Part shown: positions 1,427-36,350 of the stretch, one piece after another
Layout of the letters: every line of letters begins with the position of its first letter
How positions within the stretch are numbered: position 1 is the stretch's first letter
DNA from: a virus
Taxonomy: Duplodnaviria; Heunggongvirae; Uroviricota; Caudoviricetes
Virus record (IMG/VR): IMGVR_UViG_2711768052_000001
Span: 1-43,044 of that record
Direction: 5' to 3' (one strand)
Length of the DNA stretch: 43,044 nt
Notes under the pieces: generated by a model
The model's database searches: none
Seen by the model: only the letters and a program-made list of their open reading frames with translations
What the model was told of the DNA's origin: nothing
Translations under genes and position numbers: made by a program

Positions 1427-3898
1427 TTATTGCAGGCGATTCGCAGCATCTCCAACAGAGCCAGTAAAAGCAACGCTTGCACTTACTCCTATAGGGGGGT
1501 TCCCATTTTCAAATGTACAGCCTTGTATTGAGTCGTAATCAGTTAGGTCTGGAGAGACAGGGCTATTAATAAACCTAACAGAATTCCACTCGGCTCTTGG
1601 TAGCTGTGATGAAGAACCACCAGAAGAACTTGGTAATGCGTAGACAAATCCGCCAGATACTTTTATAAAAGAATCCATGTTCCTTCCACCTGATGAGTCT
1701 GTTAGTGAAATAATAAAGCAATCAACTAGGTTTAGTCTGCCTGGGATATCAAACTGACCTGAAAAACCATAAAAGTTACGTACATTTATTTCTGGAACAA
1801 CAGACGGAGTAGGAAAACTGGACACCTCAGTCTGCGTATACATGCACATAAGTGTCTGGACTGCAGTATTCTGACTTGCGCTCTGATGGTCTTTTTGAAA
1901 ACCACTGTGAATATTCTCAATATTAATTATTGAGTTAAAGAAAGCCCGATTATTAGTAGAGGCAACTGCGGCAGTTGTTCCACGCAAATCCGGGAGAATA
2001 ACTGGTGCTATTTTCGCAGTCCTCGGAGGTTTGCTATATTTAATATCTTTCACAGTGATACTTGATGGCATTAGTACGCTGGGGAGTATGTAATTCCCGT
2101 TGTAGTTAATTGCGACAAAAGTTAGCCATGAATCTAGTATTGCGTCATTAAACACCTCTACCGTAATGTTTTTCACAGTAACCGCCGTACCCCACGGAAC
2201 TGGTGCTGTATAGCCATAATCAGGAGTTGTTGAACTTGTTGTGCTAACACCGGCATTGAACGACACGCATGATAGAATTCCTGGTGCGGTCTCCGATGCA
2301 GAAGAAAATGATAATTCCCTCGACATCTTATACGAAATATTTTCAACAGTAATATCACCATCAAAGTAACTACCGTAATCCTCCCGCATAAAGATAACAC
2401 TTCGACGAGTTTTATCTATGTTATTTGCACTGGTTCCAGTTAGGTCTGTCTGAGATCCAAGATATTTGGCACAATTAGAGACTCTAAGATAACCTCCACC
2501 AACACCAATGAACACACCAAATTCGTGTAACTTAGTGTGATTAACGTCTATGTCGAAAAGATGATAATGTCCATCTACCCGATTTAAAGTTGAATTAGTA
2601 ACTATCAAATCTCTCGATTTATTCAGACCAATAGCTCCCCAACCTTGCACAGCATTAACGTTATCAAGAATTATTTCAGCTGCGTAGTTACTCCCCAAGA
2701 GATACGACCCATTGTTCGCGTTATAACTTGACATGGCTTCTGCAGATATGTTATCGAACCTTATCTGACTAACACCATCACCAAGATAAAATATCTGCCT
2801 GATGTTTGTTACCTTAATATTGTCGTCTTGCCGTACAGTTATATCAGAAAACTTAACCTGTGACCTTAACGCTTTAAAAACAACACCTGACGTCATACCA
2901 GACGTATCAATGTGAGCGCCTTCAACTTTCAACCAGAAGTCTTCATCAGGTCTGAAATAGGCCTCCGGAGAGGGTGATGCAGTAAAATCATGCTCAAGAG
3001 GATATTGTAAACCTCCGTATTTTGTTACACGGTTTATCGTTGTTTTGTAATATGTTGGTGCAACTTCAGCAATCTGGCGTTTGCACAGAGGATCTCTTGT
3101 ATCCATCCAAAAAGTACCACGGCTATATGTAATCATGCCGCCATAAAGAGCCATCTCACCTTTTCTCATTCCTCCTTGCGATATTTTAGAGGTAACATTT
3201 TCTGAATTTTTCCCTTGTAGAGAATAAGTTGGAGTTGTGTCAAATGAAGGCTCTCCAGAAAACTGCGGTCTAATTACGCATCCATTGAAATAAACTGGCG
3301 TTCTTACCTCTATGTTAGCCTTTGCGTCCATGGTGATTTCTGAAACATCATATAAAACAGGAATACCAAGTGTGTTTGCTTTTTTGTGAGCTAATCTTAA
3401 TTTTTCTGTTTCATCACCAACTCCGATAACACCGAAGTCTGAGATCTGTATAAATGGTTTTCTTTTTAATATATCCCCAATTGAGCCAGATGGATATGAA
3501 ATATCAGGATTAAATCCAACATATCCAGCACCATACTCTGATTCAATTATCGCTCTAAACTGATCAGGGTCATACTTCAGCACATTAGGAAAATTGAACT
3601 GCTGTGCACCATATGCATCATAAACAGCCATAGAATGGCCTTGTACAGTTACGAATTTGGCAATCTGTCCGTTATATACCGGATATCCAGCAGCGTTAAT
3701 GATGATTGGCTGTTCAACAGGAACGTGAGAGCCGTCTTCGTTCTCCACATAAACCTGAATCTGGTTTTCAGGATTTACCGGGTCCGTGTCAATTTTACCG
3801 ATATAGATTTTGCCATTGGCTACGGCTTTAAAAGAACGAGCCATAGTGAAGAGTTGCGAAGGCATGCTCACTACAACATTGGCTGTAATGTCTGTCAT
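1427..3898 (-). CDS. Tailspike protein (823 aa) with P22-type N-terminal head-binding domain and a divergent receptor-binding domain
   Basis: First about 110 aa ([11 protein letters not shown]...[13 protein letters not shown]...DTDPVNP...YDPDQ) closely match the P22 gp9 head-binding domain; the remainder is unrelated to P22, Sf6 or HK620 spikes as far as I recall. Confidence 0.9.
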
Positions 3899-29733: not shown

Positions 29734-31110
29734 TCATACGTCAGCCCCTTGTGCATATCGTCTGCCACGCGCAGCAGGTGCATTTGATGCTGTGCAAATC
29801 TGTCTGGCTTCATCCTGGTCACATGCAACAAAGTGTCCGTTACAGAACCGCTGGTAAACCGTACCAAGCGAGCCAAAACGGTTTTTCGTCACAATGATTT
29901 CAGCAAATGGCGCGGCGCTACTGTTCTCGTCATATACCGCTTCCCGATAGAGCATGATGATTGAGTCTGCGTCCTGTTCAATGCTTCCTGAATCACGCAA
30001 ATCTGCGTTTGTCGGGCGTTTGTTTGGTCGCTTCTCAACATCGCGCGAAAGCTGACTTAGGGAGATCACAGGCGTTTTCAGGTCTTTCGCCATCGCCTTA
30101 AGGCTTCCGGAGATGTGAGCAATTGCGAGGTCGTTGCGATCTGCTTTCGGCTTCTCAATCAGGCCAAGATAATCCGCCATGATGAGTGACAGGTTTGGAT
30201 TTTCCTGTTTGTGCCGTTCTGCGATTGAGCGTATTTCTTCGACCGATAACCGCGAGGCATCGACTACCCATACATCCAAATCTGCAAGCTGACTCATGCC
30301 GTTAGCAACGCGCGCCCAGCCTTCGTCATCCATCGATGCAGGATTTCGCAGTACGCTAACCGACATCCTCCCGGCGTTGGCAATGCTTCGCTCTGCAATC
30401 TGCAATGCGCTCATTTCCATTGAGAAAATCAATACCCCGCGCCGGACGTCAGAACCAGGAATAACGCGGCTTGCAACGCCTTCGGCAATCTTCAGCGCCA
30501 GTTCGGTTTTCCCCATACCCGGACGAGCAGCGATAATCACCAGGTCTTCCGCGTTCATCCCTCCGGTGATGGCGTCAAGTTCTTCGATTCCGGTCTTCAG
30601 GGTATCTGACTCTTCTCCGTTCCTCAGACGCTTGTCAAGCGTATCAGTGTAGTCAGTGATGATTTCCCCTAACCGTACCGGTTTAACCTCGTCACAGGGC
30701 TTTCTGATGGCTGAGAGACGCTTTACAAGTTCATCCATCGCCTGACTCGATGCGTCGATGGTTCCGCTCTGAATTGGTTCACGCATTTCATCCATGATTT
30801 CCAGCACCAGACGGCGGTGATAGTTATCCGCGACCATTCCGGCATATCCCTTCAGGTTTGCGGCACTCGGGCAGTTTTTGCTGGTCATCAGGATTGACGT
30901 GAAATGCTCCTCTCCGCACGCCTCGGCAACCATCAGCGCGTCGATTAGGTTTCTGTTTCGCGCCTGCTTGCGGATAACCTCGAAGGCTTTCCGGTAGAGC
31001 GGAATTGAAAACGCTTCCGGCTCCAGCGTTGCCAGAACGTCACTGGCAGTTGGTGTTAATCCACCAATCAGCAGGCCACCGATAACGCTCGCTTCGATAT
31101 CCTGTTTCAT
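29734..31110 (-). CDS. Replicative DNA helicase, DnaB family (P22 gp12-like, 458 aa)
   Basis: Walker A ARPGMGKT, DnaB N-terminal domain, RecA-like C-terminal domain; start overlaps the O-like stop (ATGA). Confidence 0.9.
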
Positions 31111-32054
31111 GCAATCCCCCTGCCTGCAAACTTCCCTTCCCGAACTCCCGTTAACGAATCTTCCCTCAGCAGGTAATCAAAATCAGCCGTCCAGCCCGTG
31201 TCGTTGTCTCCGAAGTAAAACGGCTTGGCCTGATGCACAAACGCCCTGACATACGCTCTGAAACCGTCCACGTTTGGCGTTTTCAGTTGCGGGATGATTT
31301 TCTTCAGGCGGCGTTTTCGTTTCTCGTTGACCGCAACAGCGTGTGGCAGTCTGTCACCGACTTCGGTGTTGTAGGCGTTCAGGAAGGATTCGTAGTCGAT
31401 TCGTTCTGCCTTGCGACGTTCAGGTTTAACCTGCCCATCGCCTCCCCCATTGGGGGGTAGGGGGGTATTATTTATATTCTTGTTAATACCTTCTTGTTCA
31501 TGATGTGCGGTTGTTTGTGCGGCTTCATGTGCGCTTTCATGTGCGGCATGTACGCTGAAAGCCGCGCTATTGCTGGCTTCATCATGTGCGGCATCATGTG
31601 CGGTTGTTTGTGCGGCTTCATGTGCGGGTAAATTGTCCATTTTTTGAGCATATTCATGGTAATTTGTGATGGTTATCACACGGCCTTTTTGCTTCTCTCC
31701 ATCAATGGAGATCATCCCCTCTTTCACAAAAACCTGAAGCATCCGCTCAACCTGATCACGGCTTGCTGGCTTGCCATGTCTGTCGCATAACTGAAGACCT
31801 AAATCAGCTGCTGTCACAACCAGTTGACCGGGTTGCAGATGCCATTCATGACCTTTGAAATTCGCTTTGTATGGCTTTCTGGCGGCATTCAGGAGAAGGT
31901 TTTCCCACAGGGTGCGAAGATAAACATCTTTCGCCCATGACTGTTTCAGAATGCTCCGGTACAACGGAATGTAACCAGTTTTCTGGTTCTCCATCCTGTT
32001 GCTCCTGCGCTCGTGTGCGGCGCTGAAATCGTAGATTTTTGCTGTATTGCTCAT
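31107..32054 (-). CDS. Replication initiation protein, lambda O / P22 gp18-like (315 aa)
   Basis: N-terminus [10 protein letters not shown] resembles lambda O MTNTAKI; contains an internal repetitive His/Ala-rich segment encoded by iteron-like DNA repeats. Confidence 0.85.
31440..31630. repeat. Probable replication origin: iteron array (about 8 copies of a (c/t)(a/t)tgtgcgg unit) plus adjacent G-rich and AT-rich tracts, inside the O-like gene
   Basis: Two about 35-bp blocks tcatgatgtgcggttgtttgtgcggcttcatgtgcg are directly repeated; flanked by ggggggtagggggg and tattatttatattc. Confidence 0.6.
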
Positions 32055-32056
32055 AA

Positions 32057-32329
32057 CTACCTGCCTTGACGAAAGACCTTAAGAACATCGTTAAACTGAC
32101 TTACGGATATGTCTTCTTTGAGAAGCTTTTCCAGAAATGCGTTTGGAATGAACGTATATCCCTCCTCTTTTGGTAGAGACGGGAGCAACGCCCTCGCCTC
32201 AGCCTTCAGAAGCTCAGTTCTGGCAACTTTCACAAAAGAGATTTGAGTTCTTTCATCAATGGAACGAAGGAAGCGCAAACGCTTAGCTTCTTTGTGTGTA
32301 TCAGGTGGAGTAAAGCCTTTGTTTCGCAT
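32057..32329 (-). CDS. Hypothetical protein (90 aa) between cII and the O-like gene
   Basis: ORF 32057..32602 trimmed to MRNKGF (GAGGT SD); the longer N-terminus would overlap cII. Confidence 0.5.
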   Translation of the reverse strand: MRNKGFTPPDTHKEAKRLRFLRSIDERTQISFVKVARTELLKAEARALLPSLPKEEGYTFIPNAFLEKLLKEDISVSQFNDVLKVFRQGR

Positions 32330-32351: not shown

Positions 32352-32645
32352 TTAAAATTCCATTTGTATTTGATCAGAACGCTCGGTTGCCGCCGGGCGT
32401 TTTTTATTGGTGAGAATCGAAGCAACTTGTCGTGCCAATCGAGCCATGTCGTCGTCGACAACACCCCATTCAAGAACAGCAAGCAGCATTGAGAACTTTG
32501 GAATCCAGTCCCTCTTCCACCTGCTGATCTGCGACTTATCAACTCCCACAGCTTCCGCTGTCTTCTCAGTTCCAAGCATTGCGATTTTGTTAAGCAACGC
32601 ACTCTCGATTCTTAGAGCCTCGTTGCGTTTGTTTGCACGAACCAT
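32352..32645 (-). CDS. cII: Transcriptional activator CII (97 aa)
   Basis: MVRANKRNEALRIESALLNKIAMLGTEKTAEAVGVDKSQISRWKRDWIPKFSMLLAVLEWG recalled as near-identical to lambda CII. Confidence 0.95.
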   Translation of the reverse strand: MVRANKRNEALRIESALLNKIAMLGTEKTAEAVGVDKSQISRWKRDWIPKFSMLLAVLEWGVVDDDMARLARQVASILTNKKRPAATERSDQIQMEF

Positions 32646-32724
32646 ATGTAAGTATTTCCTTAGATAACAATTGATTGAATGTATGCAAATAAATGCATAC
32701 ACCATAGGTGTGGTTTAATTTGAT

Positions 32725-32756
32725 GCCCTTTTTCAGGGCTGTGATGTGTAAGAGCG
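32725..32756 (-). promoter_or_regulatory. nutR antitermination site (boxA CGCTCTTA and boxB GCCCTGAAAAAGGGC hairpin)
   Basis: Minus-strand CGCTCTTACACATCACAGCCCTGAAAAAGGGC, lambda nutR-like, between cro and cII. Confidence 0.75.
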
Positions 32757-32764
32757 AGAATGTC

Positions 32765-32980
32765 TTAAGCGGCTTTGTGTTCCGGCGGGAACACGTCATC
32801 AAGACTGACTTTTGCGCCTAACTTGTTTAGGCACTCAACAAGAGCACGGCATGTTTTAAGGTCTGGGAAGCGACGACCAGATTCCCAATGTCCGATAGCT
32901 CCCTGTGTGCATCCAACTGCCTTAGCAAGTGTTGTTTGAGAGATATTCAGTGACTCTCGATATTTTCGTAGGTTGCTCAT
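32765..32980 (-). CDS. cro: Cro-like HTH repressor (71 aa), non-lambda immunity type
   Basis: MSNLRKYRESLNISQTTLAKAVGCTQGAIGHWESGRRFP: HTH_XRE fold; GGAGGG SD; divergent from cI. Confidence 0.8.
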   Translation of the reverse strand: MSNLRKYRESLNISQTTLAKAVGCTQGAIGHWESGRRFPDLKTCRALVECLNKLGAKVSLDDVFPPEHKAA

Positions 32981-33006
32981 ATGCCCTCCATAGTAACCAT
33001 GAAACA

Positions 33007-33035
33007 ATAATACGATATGTACTTTTAGAATGCAA
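33007..33035 (-). promoter_or_regulatory. Candidate PR promoter (-35 TTGCAT, 17-bp spacer, -10 TATTAT) with an operator-like 15-mer in the spacer
   Basis: Minus strand TTGCAT-tctaaaagtacatatcg-TATTAT about 25 nt upstream of the cro ATG; the spacer 15-mer AAGTACATATCGTAT resembles the one in PL. Confidence 0.55.
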
Positions 33036-33092
33036 ACAAAAAAATACATCTTGTGCATGGATGGTTTTAGTACAGAGCGTAATAATAAGGGT

Positions 33093-33752
33093 ATGAAAAT
33101 GAAATGGTATGAACTGGCTAGATCCAGAATGAAAGAGCTCGGCATAACTCAAGAGAGGTTAGCTGAAGAGCTTGGTATGACGCAGGGTGGAATTGGTCAC
33201 TGGTTGCGCGGATCTCGTCATCCATCTCTTGACGAGATTGGTGTGGTGTTTAAATACCTTGGTATTGATAACGTCTCATTCAACCACGACGGTACATTTT
33301 CACCTGTTGGCGAATACTCTCTGCCCCCGTTAAAAAAACAATATGAGTACCCTGTTTTTTCTCATGTTCAGGCCGGGATGTTCTCGCCTGAGCTTAGAAC
33401 CTTTACCAAAGGTGATGCGGAGAGATGGGTCAGCACAACCAAAAAAGCCAGTGATTGTGCGTTCTGGCTTGAAGTTGAAGGTAATTCCATGACCGCGCCA
33501 ACAGGATCCAAGCCAAGCTTTCCTGACGGGATGTTAATTCTCGTTGACCCTGAGCAGGCTGTTGAGCCAGGTGATTTCTGCATAGCCAGACTTGGTGGTG
33601 ACGAGTTTACCTTCAAGAAACTGATCAGGGATAGCGGTCAGGTGTTCCTACAGCCACTAAACCCGCAATATCCAATGATTCCATGCAATGATAGCTGTTC
33701 CGTAGTAGGGAAAGTTATCGCCAGCCAGTGGCCTGAAGAGACATTTAGTTAA
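33093..33752 (+). CDS. cI: CI repressor (about 219 aa): non-lambda N-terminal HTH domain fused to a lambda-like C-terminal S24 peptidase/dimerisation domain
   Basis: C-terminal about 115 aa ([30 protein letters not shown]...EVEGNSMT...) recalled as near-identical to lambda CI; N-terminal HTH differs; start may be 33093 or 33099 (ORF track 33030). Confidence 0.9.
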
Positions 33753-33784
33753 CAGCCTCACAACTCTAAAATACACAACAATAA

Positions 33785-33812
33785 CCCGACCTTAGCGTCG
33801 GGTTTTCTTTTT
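33785..33812 (+). terminator. Rho-independent terminator downstream of cI
   Basis: cccgac-cttagc-gtcggg hairpin followed by ttttcttttt. Confidence 0.65.
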
Positions 33813-33877
33813 CCAAAATATAAACCCATTAAATACAAAGCGTTATAAAAAACTAATTATATTTAGAACATTTTGTA

Positions 33878-33906
33878 TTGACTCAATAAAGTACAAATCG
33901 TACTAT
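33878..33906 (+). promoter_or_regulatory. PL promoter (-35 TTGACT, 17-bp spacer, -10 TACTAT) with an operator-like near-palindrome AGTACAAATCGTACT in the spacer
   Basis: Consensus-like hexamers with correct spacing upstream of nutL and N; the downstream transcript start region ATCAGCAGGACGCACT is lambda-like. Confidence 0.7.
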
Positions 33907-33945
33907 TTAGCCATCAGCAGGACGCACTAACCACCATGAAGGTGA

Positions 33946-33976
33946 GGCTCTTAAAAATTAAGCCCTGAAGAAGGGC
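33946..33976 (+). promoter_or_regulatory. nutL antitermination site (boxA GCTCTTA, boxB GCCCTGAAGAAGGGC)
   Basis: ggctcttaaaaattaagccctgaagaagggc, nearly identical to lambda nutL as recalled. Confidence 0.85.
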
Positions 33977-34159
33977 GGCATTCAAAGCAGAAAGCTTTGG
34001 GGTGTGGTGAAGCTCAACGGCGAGCTAGGGAATAGTTTTGCGGTGAAGATTCTAGACAACTAACCGCAGGATGCGCGTAACCCAATCGGCAGCGCACCGA
34101 TGGAAGCTGGTTCGACTCCAGCCACCACACCACCAAAGCTAACTGACAGGAGAATCCAG

Positions 34160-34486
34160 ATGGATGCACAAACACGCCGCCGCGAACGTCGCGCAGAGAA
34201 ACAGGCTCAATGGAAAGCAGCAAATCCCCTGTTGGTTGGGGTAAACGCAAAACCAGTTAACCGCCCTATTCTCTCGCTGAATCGCAAACCGAAATCACGA
34301 GTAGAAAGCGCACTGAATCCGATAGACCTTACGGTGCTGGCTGAATACCACGAACAGATTGAAAGCAACCTGCAACGTATTGAGCGCAAGAATCAGCGCA
34401 CATGGTACAGCAAGCCACGCAGTGAAATGGGTGTGACTTGTGTTGGTCGCCAGAAAATGAAATTAGGCAGCAAACCACTTATTTGA
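34160..34486 (+). CDS. N: Antiterminator N (108 aa)
   Basis: MDAQTRRRERRAEKQAQWKAANPLLVGV... arginine-rich motif; lambda N-like; AGGAG SD; ORF-track start at 34100 rejected. Confidence 0.95.
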   Translation: MDAQTRRRERRAEKQAQWKAANPLLVGVNAKPVNRPILSLNRKPKSRVESALNPIDLTVLAEYHEQIESNLQRIERKNQRTWYSKPRSEMGVTCVGRQKMKLGSKPLI

Positions 34487-34494
34487 GGTGAGAT

Positions 34495-34860
34495 ATGGAA
34501 GAACAAGCAAACAAGATTCTCGTAGAACTACTGCAAAAAGCCAGTAATGGAATAGACGCGGCTGTTTCATTTAGCCAGGCACAGATTCCTGATGTCATCC
34601 ATCAGCTTTTGATGTGGCACGCCGTATCATCAGCTGGAATTCAGGCTATCTGTGTATTGGTGATTATAGCGTGTGTTTATCTGATGATTTTTGCATGGAA
34701 TAAAGGAGATGATGCGGATGTTGTTATTTTATCGCTACTTGTAACATCAGGAATAGAGATTACTTCTATTGTTGTTTTCTTCAATTATTTCGACTGGCTG
34801 AAAATCTGGCTTGCTCCAAAACTTTACCTTATCGAATATGCAGCATCATTGGTTAAGTAA
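34495..34860 (+). CDS. Membrane protein (121 aa, 2-3 predicted TM helices); candidate superinfection-exclusion-type moron
   Basis: GAGGTGAG SD; hydrophobic segments ICVLVIIACVYLMIFAW and ILSLLVTSGIEITSIVVFF; first gene after N. Confidence 0.6.
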   Translation: MEEQANKILVELLQKASNGIDAAVSFSQAQIPDVIHQLLMWHAVSSAGIQAICVLVIIACVYLMIFAWNKGDDADVVILSLLVTSGIEITSIVVFFNYFDWLKIWLAPKLYLIEYAASLVK

Positions 34861-35381: not shown

Positions 35382-36350
35382 ATGAGTGAAGTAACAGATT
35401 TAGTTGTTATTGAAAAAGCAAATGCAATGACTGTATTTCAGTCTGCCGACCAGATTGAAGAAATCCTTCAAAAGGTTGAACGTGAAGTTATGTCCTTTGT
35501 GCCTGATATCACAACGGCAAAGGGCAGAAAGGAGATCGCTTCTCTGGCGTATAAAGTTGCGCAGACGAAAACATATCTCGATGGTCTTGGCAAAGACCTT
35601 GTTGCTGAACTGAAGGAAATTCCAAAGCTAATTGATGCCAACCGCAAGACAGTGCGCGATCGCCTTGATGAGCTGAAAGCCAAGGCACGCCAGCCTCTTA
35701 CTGATTATGAGGAAGAACAGGCGCGGATTAAAGCCGAAGAAGAAGCTAAGGCAGCAGCTGAAGCTCTCGCAAAGCAAATTGAGTCTGACCATGAAATAGC
35801 GATTTTGATGGATCGCGAATTTGACCGCCAAAGAGAAGAGGCAAGACTCAAAGCGGAGCAGGAAAAGCGAGAGCATGAAGAACGCTTAAAAAGAGAAGCT
35901 GAAGAGAAAGCCAGAGCAGAAGCCGAAGCAAAGGCAAAATCCGAAATTGAAGCAGCAGCAAGGCGAGAAGCAGAAGCTAAGGCCGCAGCGGAACGTGCAG
36001 AGCGTGAACGCATTGAAGCCGAGCAGCGAGCACAGCGCGAAGCAAAAGAGGCAGCAGAACGAGCTGAAAGAGAAAAGCAGGCAGCAATTGAAGCAGAACG
36101 CAGAAAAGCACAGGAGGAGGCTGAACGAATCCGTCGCGATGCTGAAGCAAAAGAGCAAGCCAGAATAGCAGAAGAAAAAAGAATCAAGGACGAAGAAGAG
36201 CGTAGAGCAAAGGATAAAGCTCACCGGAAAGAAGTAAATAACAAAATACTTGCTGACCTTATCAAGGTTGGCGCATCAGAAGATGTTGCTAAAAATATCA
36301 TAACAGCCATCGTAAAAGGCGAAGTATTCGCAACAAAAATAACCTACTAA
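35382..36350 (+). CDS. Hypothetical protein (322 aa) with a long Glu/Ala/Arg/Lys-rich coiled coil (TolA-like composition)
   Basis: GGAGG SD at Met19 of ORF 35328..36350; about 100-aa globular N-terminus then about 170 aa of charged helical repeats. Confidence 0.7.
   Translation: MSEVTDLVVIEKANAMTVFQSADQIEEILQKVEREVMSFVPDITTAKGRKEIASLAYKVAQTKTYLDGLGKDLVAELKEIPKLIDANRKTVRDRLDELKAKARQPLTDYEEEQARIKAEEEAKAAAEALAKQIESDHEIAILMDREFDRQREEARLKAEQEKREHEERLKREAEEKARAEAEAKAKSEIEAAARREAEAKAAAERAERERIEAEQRAQREAKEAAERAEREKQAAIEAERRKAQEEAERIRRDAEAKEQARIAEEKRIKDEEERRAKDKAHRKEVNNKILADLIKVGASEDVAKNIITAIVKGEVFATKITY

Follow-up and report, generated by a model that had tools for sequence, protein, structure and literature searches.

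In laboratory and natural hybrids of lambda, such as lambda imm434 and lambda imm21, a block made up of the repressor gene, cro and the operators is swapped between conserved flanks; its right boundary lies just past cro and its left boundary at PL. Here we describe the immunity region of a tailed phage genome, IMG/VR record IMGVR_UViG_2711768052_000001 (Caudoviricetes), whose whole stretch of 43,044 nucleotides (positions 1 to 43,044 of the record) we call the window. Unlike in those hybrids, one of the boundaries in the window falls inside cI, at the inter-domain linker, so that the specificity block that was swapped takes in the repressor's DNA-binding half alone. A CI protein split into a lambda-like C-terminus and a non-lambda N-terminus has been published for phage VT2-Sa (Fattah et al. 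2000, as related in PMC10742460). Lambda CI binds the six VT2-Sa operators weakly, with apparent dissociation constants (KDapp) of 3.7-6.4 uM versus 0.2-0.35 uM for lambda OL1/OR1 (PMC10742460). Among the repressors of Shiga toxin (Stx) phages, the clade that includes VT2-Sakai is the closest to lambda CI, at 61% overall (PMC8951638).

We conclude that, very probably, the window carries a complete lambda-style switch with VT2-Sakai specificity in a P22-like Escherichia coli phage or prophage, that its chimeric CI goes back to an ancestral domain exchange, and that the immunity (imm) module was later swapped into lambda-type flanks. A preliminary description of this DNA, drawn from its letters without database searches, had already proposed a chimeric immunity region; all that it named is present in the sequence, at the positions given or 1-2 nt from them, and its interpretation is supported throughout, with four corrections that we give below.

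BLASTN against lambda (NC_001416) returned homology at 32356-32756 (lambda 38649-38249, 96.8%; cII, the rut sites and nutR), 33342-33746 (lambda 37637-37233, 93.8%; the second half of cI), 33775-33810 (lambda 35834-35799, 89%; the terminator at the rexB end) and 33912-34461 (lambda 35583-35062, 84% in a gapped alignment; the PL start, nutL and N). The borders are sharp. In a base-by-base alignment, lambda identity stops 8 nt short of the cro stop codon. It resumes at 33342 within cI, passing from undetectable to about 94% over a few bases, stops again at the cI stop, and resumes at 33912, one base before the expected PL transcription start (+1, 33913). Relative to lambda, the replaced blocks are thus cro-OR-cI N-terminal domain (32757-33341) and the cI-distal OL/PL segment (33753-33911).

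The division of CI into two domains of different affinity is equally clear in the protein. The N-terminal helix-turn-helix (HTH) domain and linker (33093-33341, plus strand, with the ATG at 33093 or 33099) are of VT2-Sakai type and carry the recognition helix QGGIGHW, and the C-terminal Peptidase_S24 domain (33342-33752, plus strand) is lambda-like. Overall, CI is 72% identical to lambda CI by BLASTP. From codon 82 on, 133 of the 136 residues are those of lambda CI (97.8%), the substitutions being S140C, E218D and G237S in the numbering of the lambda precursor. The DNA of this C-terminal domain (CTD) is 93.4% identical, its 27 differences in 408 nt accounting for 23 synonymous and 3 non-synonymous codons; the CTD is therefore lambda-like, as had been claimed, but not "lambda-identical". 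In the N-terminal domain (NTD; about 80 amino acids), in contrast, identity to lambda CI is about 26%, which bears out the claim of a non-lambda HTH.

Pfam finds HTH_3 at residues 11-58 of CI (E=1.5e-10) and Peptidase_S24 (E=8.9e-29), and the Ala-Gly cleavage site (VQAG/MF), the Ser (GNSM) and the Lys (FKKL) align identically to lambda CI. CI therefore has the HTH, the S24 domain, the Ala-Gly site and the Ser/Lys dyad of LexA/CI-type autocleavable phage repressors, and its 98% CTD identity to lambda suggests that it should undergo RecA-stimulated self-cleavage on SOS induction. The cro gene (32765-32980, minus strand) encodes a 71-residue HTH_3 protein with the recognition helix CTQGAIGHWESG. 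This Cro was also rightly called non-lambda: BLASTP against lambda Cro gave no alignment at E<=100. The recognition helices of the two window proteins are near-identical (QGGIGHW in CI, QGAIGHW in Cro), as expected for a pair of proteins with common operators.

These DNA-binding parts are those of the VT2-Sakai type. CI matches VT2-Sakai CI at 205 of 217 residues, and none of the 12 differences lies in the helix-turn-helix; the NTD taken alone is 91% identical, with its helix-turn-helix segment free of substitutions. Cro is identical at 70 of 71 positions, the sole difference (E49A) lying outside the recognition helix. At the DNA level, cro-OR-cI is 92.5% identical to VT2-Sakai (also VT2-Sa), the Stx1-converting phage AP005153, Stx2 II, Nil2 and others, and the type extends to 1717, YYZ-2008, 2851 and the PA-series phages. 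With the NTD as query, tblastn found no fewer than 63 phage records that reach 90% identity, most of them Stx phages; after these come relatives at about 55% in P22-like phages of Salmonella.

How did a VT2-Sakai-type NTD come to sit on a lambda-like CTD? Among the CTDs of the window, lambda and VT2-Sakai, nucleotide differences amount to 27/408 (window-lambda), 36/408 (window-VT2-Sakai) and 29/408 (lambda-VT2-Sakai), or 6.6-8.8%, and nearly all are synonymous. By this measure the three CTDs are about equidistant members of one conserved pool. Because they are equidistant, and because the same chimeric CI is found in VT2-Sakai and many other phages, the cI junction predates this phage. The preliminary description had located recombination junctions inside cI and at the PL start; both positions hold (33342 and 33912), but the cI junction is not an event of this phage, since VT2-Sakai has the same CI. 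This phage and its close relatives stand apart in having the VT2-Sakai-type imm module between lambda-type nutR/cII and nutL/N. Of the module's crossover points, one is no more than 10 bp from the cro stop codon and the other falls in a 14-nt sequence, CATCAGCAGGACGC, at PL +1, which the window, lambda and VT2-Sakai have in common. The chimeric CI would thus have arisen by domain exchange in an ancestor common to the VT2-Sakai-type phages, and a later exchange would have put the imm module between lambda-type flanks by way of short shared border sequences such as the 14 nt at PL +1.

The same pattern might in principle have formed without any recombination in cI, if the NTD, cro and the operators had diverged in place under diversifying selection and the CTD had been held by purifying selection. 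Constraint on the CTD is indeed strong, 23 of its 26 changed codons being synonymous, and the NTD keeps the same HTH_3 fold and weakly matches the NTD of the lambda repressor (E about 1e-3). We nevertheless consider divergence in place highly improbable. It does not account for the jump in DNA identity at 33342, where a few bases separate undetectable from about 94%, nor for the equally sharp borders at the stops of cro and cI and at PL +1. The synonymous divergence of the CTD is just 6-9% or so, and neighbouring neutral sites could not have randomised meanwhile. Moreover, closer relatives of the NTD (44-55% of amino acids, in Salmonella and other phages) carry quite different CTDs. Among the CI proteins of the loci that we collected, NTD relatives at 44-52% are joined to CTDs that are 43-81% like lambda's, whereas the NTD described here, only 26-32% like lambda's, sits on a CTD that is 98-99% lambda-like. 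Taken with the abrupt breakpoint, this discordance between the two domains speaks for an exchange of domains and against divergence in place.

Repeat analysis combined with a degenerate pattern, ARTACANNNYGT, identified six predicted sites. At OR, these are OR1 (AGTACATATCGTATT, 33009-33023, minus strand), OR2 (AATACATCTTGTGCA, 33043-33057, plus strand), which abuts the PRM -35 as lambda OR2 does, and OR3 (AGTACAGAGCGTAAT, 33069-33083, plus strand), which overlaps the PRM spacer and -10. At OL, they are OL3 (AATACAAAGCGTTAT, 33832-33846, plus strand), OL2 (AATACAAAATGTTCT, 33865-33879, minus strand) and OL1 (AGTACAAATCGTACT, 33890-33904, plus strand), the last a perfect palindrome (AGTAC-N5-GTACT). 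The O1 sites fall in the spacers of PR and PL, at the -10 edge. PR (33007-33035, minus strand) has a -35 of TTGCAT (33030-35), a 17-nt spacer and a -10 of TATTAT (33007-12), and the annotated VT2-Sakai PR maps to it. PL (33878-33913, plus strand) reads TTGACT-17-TACTAT (33878-33906), with +1 at about 33913. A putative PRM (33058-33086, plus strand), placed by mapping from the VT2-Sakai annotation, has a weak -35, TGGATG (33058-63), and a -10 of AATAAT (33081-86); by analogy it would start at about 33093, which would make the cI mRNA leaderless or near-leaderless.

Much of this had been seen beforehand. The preliminary description had picked out a 15-mer in the -35/-10 spacer of each promoter, AAGTACATATCGTAT in PR (present on the minus strand, 33010-33024) and AAGTACAAATCGTAC in PL (present at 33889-33903), and had taken them for likely O1-type operators; both lie in the spacer and at the -10 edge, and they correspond to the predicted OR1 and OL1. 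The related sequence that it gave as 33832..33845 is present one base further on, at 33833-33846, and is OL3. OR2, OR3 and OL2 had escaped it, so that its three sites become six. Its view of the operators as non-lambda also proved correct: when the lambda 17-bp operators (TATCACCGC and the others) were compared with OR and OL, even the best match had at least 7/17 mismatches. In the alignment with lambda by which it had proposed to check the chimera, neither the CI N-terminus nor the operators match.

The 15-mers might alternatively be a promoter-spacer sequence shared by PR and PL, or a chance AT-rich similarity, with the true operators elsewhere. The best two copies do occupy the same position in two promoters that may have a common ancestry, and operator function is a prediction made with a search pattern that was derived from the sites themselves. 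On the pattern, ARTACANNNYGT matches 6 times in 43,044 bp (both strands), every match inside OR or OL, where 1.03 +/- 1.08 would be expected by chance and none of 100 shuffles reached 6; because the pattern comes from the six sites, the informative part of this result is that it occurs nowhere else in the window. Three of the six copies (OR2, OR3 and OL3) are not in the spacer of PR or PL, there is dyad symmetry in the sites, perfect in OL1, and the half-sites are kept while the centres vary between phages that have diverged by about 8%. The tripartite arrangement around PR, PRM and PL also matches that of lambda. Together these observations make it very unlikely that the sites are anything but operators. 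One other candidate was rejected, an OR2 at 33027-33041 that has TTTAGAA in common with OL2; it lacks a left half-site and is too near OR1, and the VT2-Sakai annotation favours 33043-57.

That annotation (AP000422) lists three "putative operators" at OR (AAGTACATATTGTATTT, AAATACACATTGTGCAT and CAGTACAGAGCGTAATA) and three at OL (AAATACAAAGCGTTGTA, TAGAACAAATTGTATTG and AAGTACATATCGTACTA), as well as PR, PRM, PL, nutL, nutR and a PRM terminator. The six window sites map on these operators one to one, AAGTACATATTGTATTT being the counterpart of OR1, with 0-3 differences per 17-mer; operator order and OL spacing (33/25 bp) are the same, and PR, PRM and PL also correspond. Between the two phages the half-sites are kept and the central bases vary, and for OR2 the same is seen across Stx phages. 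The OL/PL block at 33814-33925 is likewise homologous to VT2-Sakai OL/PL. By sequence, then, the region has what characterises the VT2-Sakai immunity type: the CI HTH, the cognate Cro and six operators in the same arrangement. The published split of CI, the one-to-one operator match and the relatives listed above mean that the chimeric repressor and its operators have already been described. The module is a known immunity type, reported some 25 years ago for VT2-Sakai, and is not new.

It is scarcely credible that the region is instead a classical immunity type (lambda, 434, 21, P22 or HK97) whose N-terminus was misjudged, the 72% overall identity of CI to lambda CI and the lambda-type flanks notwithstanding, given an NTD that is about 26% identical to lambda's and only weakly matches the NTD structures of the lambda, 434 and P22 C2 repressors (E 1e-3 to 0.4), a Cro that does not align with lambda Cro, and OR and OL with at least 7/17 mismatches to lambda operators. 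For lambda itself this alternative is already refuted at the sequence level, where the CI NTD, Cro and the operators all depart from imm lambda.

Taken together, these data suggest how the VT2-Sakai-type switch of the window would work; sequence identities, junctions, and the positions and exclusivity of the motifs are shown directly by the DNA, whereas binding, cooperativity, the position of PRM and immunity behaviour are here inferred by analogy. CI dimers would bind 15-bp pseudo-palindromes of the form A-R-TAC-N5-GTA-N-T through the VT2-Sakai-type HTH, three at OR and three at OL. Lying across spacer and -10, OR1 and OL1 would block PR and PL when occupied. Because OR2 abuts the -35 of the weak PRM, OR2-bound CI should activate cI transcription, and the overlap of OR3 with PRM would provide negative autoregulation. 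Cro, with its QGAIGHW helix, would bind the same sites as CI. Since the S24 domain is essentially lambda's, it should give dimerisation, pairwise cooperativity, OL-OR looping (over about 0.88 kb) and RecA-stimulated Ala-Gly cleavage.

Several points weigh against this reading of the switch and its origin. The operators are predicted from sequence, and their VT2-Sakai counterparts are themselves annotated as "putative" only. The right half-site of OR2 is poor (GTGCA), PRM owes its position to the mapped VT2-Sakai annotation, and cI has three candidate start codons, at 33093, 33099 and, upstream, 33057. The spacing of the operators is also not that of lambda. OR1 and OR2 are 34 bp apart from centre to centre, compared with 24 bp in lambda, and the other distances are 26 bp (OR2-OR3), 25 bp (OL1-OL2) and 33 bp (OL2-OL3); that OR1 and OR2 show lambda-like pairwise cooperativity is therefore assumed. 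Finally, the direction and order of the exchanges are not recoverable, because the three CTDs are equidistant.

The switch lies in a genome whose initial 25 kb are about 95-96% identical to the P22-like coliphages Kapi1, CUS-3, phiv205-1 and 720R6, which identifies the window as a Lederbergvirus-type temperate phage or prophage. Its gene map is reversed relative to the lambda map: an O-like replication gene, a small open reading frame (ORF), cII and cro lie on the minus strand, and cI, a terminator, PL, nutL and N on the plus strand. In Pfam terms, CI is HTH_3 plus Peptidase_S24, Cro is HTH_3, cII is Phage_CII and N is the N36 peptide. The functions that flank the module (N, nutL, nutR, and cII with PRE) are of lambda type. 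The cII gene (32352-32645, minus strand; Phage_CII E=5e-48) is identical to lambda cII at 95 of 97 residues and contains a PRE/CII box of lambda type, TTGC-N6-TTGC, which we read in the sequence at about 32625-32638. The nutR boxB, GCCCTGAAAAAGGGC (32725-32739, minus strand), is inside the lambda-homologous block 32356-32756. On the other side are a lambda-type nutL boxB, GCCCTGAAGAAGGGC (33962-33976, plus strand), and the gene for a lambda-type N antiterminator (34160-34486, plus strand), which shares 97 of 108 residues with lambda N and has an identical arginine-rich motif. An intrinsic terminator after cI (33783-33812, plus strand) resembles the lambda terminator at the rexB end. rexA and rexB are absent, and the terminator stands directly after cI (33753-33830).

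In summary, the window shares with lambda the architecture of the switch, the CI S24 domain (133/136 residues), cII and PRE (98% of amino acids), nutR, nutL, N (90% of amino acids), a terminator like the one after rexB and a PL transcript that starts with the same sequence. It differs from lambda in the CI NTD, Cro and all six operators, which are unrelated in sequence, in the operator spacings, in the lack of rexA/rexB and in the interior of the N leader, which is replaced. Because rexAB are absent, OL and OR are only about 0.88 kb apart (roughly 0.9 kb versus 2.4 kb in lambda). With VT2-Sakai, the window has in common the lambda-like CI CTD and the PR/PRM/PL layout. However, its N/nutL, nutR and cII flanks are lambda-type, whereas those of VT2-Sakai are annotated as 933W/H-19B/HK022-like. 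VT2-Sakai has about 1.3 kb with two small extra ORFs between cI and OL, where the window runs from cI through the terminator to OL, and the window is a P22-like podovirus genome without stx. Closer still are Louie (PQ850616), vB_EcoP-683R2, vB_EcoP-720R6, phi458 and Dewey, which likewise have a VT2-Sakai-type imm module within lambda-type flanks and which match the window at 96-99% over the entire 2.2 kb cII-cro-cI-OL-N block; they differ from the window mainly in the N-leader cassette described below.

The value of the immunity finding is mainly confirmatory. It is a clear case from nature of modules exchanged among lambdoid phages, the breakpoint falling in the linker between the two domains of the repressor: DNA specificity (NTD, Cro and operators) travels as a unit, and the domain for oligomerisation and RecA sensing is shared with lambda. 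In polylysogens, heteroimmune repressors that share a CTD could assemble into mixed dimers or oligomers, which might account for the partial cross-immunity of VT2-Sa with lambda that is discussed in PMC10742460 with reference to Fattah et al. 2000. Moreover, a major Stx2 phage has a repressor type that circulates in non-Stx P22-like coliphages.

The part of the locus that could repay further work is a tRNA-like structured RNA in the N leader. The flanks had been described as lambda-like, and this holds for cII and N; the N/nutL flank is not wholly lambda's, since it contains a non-lambda cassette of 127 nt (34003-34129, plus strand; covariance-model match 34000-34134) inside the PL/N leader. 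The leader has retained lambda nutL and, of the long RNase III stem, the outer strands (GGGGTGTGGTG ... CACCACACCACC), and the interior is replaced by a sequence that folds into a cloverleaf-like structure (z = -4.8). Its acceptor-like stem has 7 bp (TGTGGTG/CACCACA) and is followed by a D-arm-like hairpin (GCUC-AACGGC-GAGC), a 3-bp connector around a long hairpin whose loop, about 18 nt in length, is conserved, a further hairpin of 5 bp with a 7-nt loop (AUCGG-CAGCGCA-CCGAU), and a canonical T-arm (GCUGG-UUCGACU-CCAGC); an inserted domain makes up about 55 nt of the element. The tRNA features are thus the 7-bp acceptor stem, a D-arm with GG and the T-arm GGTTCGANTCC, with covariation in the acceptor and T stems. 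A canonical anticodon loop with U33 was not found, the 7-nt loop CAGCGCA having A at the U33 position.

We aligned 62 distinct variants over the 127 nt. The RNAalifold consensus has 35 pairs, and compensatory double changes are seen in 18; 97.7% of the cells are paired, compared with 30-49% when the partners are slid, and none of 500 shuffles attained the observed value on any measure. We considered and rejected a pseudoknot that would pair the loop CAGCGCA with the upstream UGCGCG, as variants (for example, loop G to T) are uncompensated when judged by eye. A 23-nt pattern from the 5' part of the element occurs in at least 119 IMG/VR contigs, and the element is present in 175 of 5426 complete E. 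coli genomes and in phages of Salmonella and other enterobacteria.

None of the 30 E. coli matches listed carries an RNA annotation at the element, and two overlap a "hypothetical protein"; one record labels the 3' 58 nt "tRNA-Ser". ARAGORN reported no tRNA or tmRNA at the N-leader element in the window and five related loci. Rfam 15 gave nothing at the gathering threshold in the whole window, and in E-value mode, run on the element and three homologous loci, it gave sub-threshold matches to the tmRNA T-arm. A limited literature check, which does not establish absence, found no earlier description of a tRNA-like RNA in lambdoid leaders.

We classified the genomic context of 124 copies with a small reference set, by which 40 were unclassifiable. 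Of the 124, about 53 stand between Q/tR' and the holin gene, the arrangement of HK75, about 21 are flanked by cI and N, and 9 are in Skatevirus genomes, in one of which, seszw, the element stands beside a genuine tRNA-Ile gene. In lambdoid phages with a classifiable context, the element is co-directional and in the leader of an antiterminated operon (PL-N or PR'-holin). Such a position is suggestive of a signal for processing of the tRNA type, or of a stable mimic of tRNA made from antiterminated operons. Our tentative reading, to which we give somewhat less than an even chance, is that the element is an undescribed phage tRNA-like RNA, which could stand in for the RNase III site during N expression as an RNase P/Z-type processing signal, or could be a stable mimic of tRNA, such as a decoy for host factors that target tRNAs.

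A comparison of N leaders (window 34000-34135, 720R6 3144-3363, Louie about 2445-2590 and lambda 35440-35540) found that the same outer stem encloses a different insert in each of the four phages: lambda has its hairpin, the window the tRNA-like RNA, 720R6 an insert of 220 nt and Louie yet another, where a 135-nt "hypothetical protein" is annotated. As 720R6 and Louie carry inserts of their own, the interior of the N leader behaves as an exchangeable cassette. The possibility that the lambda hairpin is a degenerate tRNA-like element was rejected: the covariance model built from the 62 variants (R1) had no match in lambda or Louie and a weak one in the 720R6 leader (19 bits, E=0.01), so that homology beyond the shared outer stem is not supported.

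Three neighbouring genes complete the picture. Directly 3' of N, a 121-residue ORF (34495-34860, plus strand), which has hydrophobic segments and no Pfam match, sits where lambda has its early-left accessory genes; it may be a membrane-associated moron of the exclusion type. On the other side of the module, an ORF of about 90 residues (32057-32329, minus strand) lies between the replication gene and cII, and lambda homology stops at 32356, just past cII. The replication gene itself (31107-32054, minus strand) encodes 315 residues and contains direct repeats with a 12-bp period at 31490-31640, CATCATGTGCGG and TGTGCGGCTTCA, in 3-4 copies each, which encode a His/Ala-rich repetitive segment of the replication protein. 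By analogy with lambda O, these repeats may be origin iterons embedded in the initiator gene.

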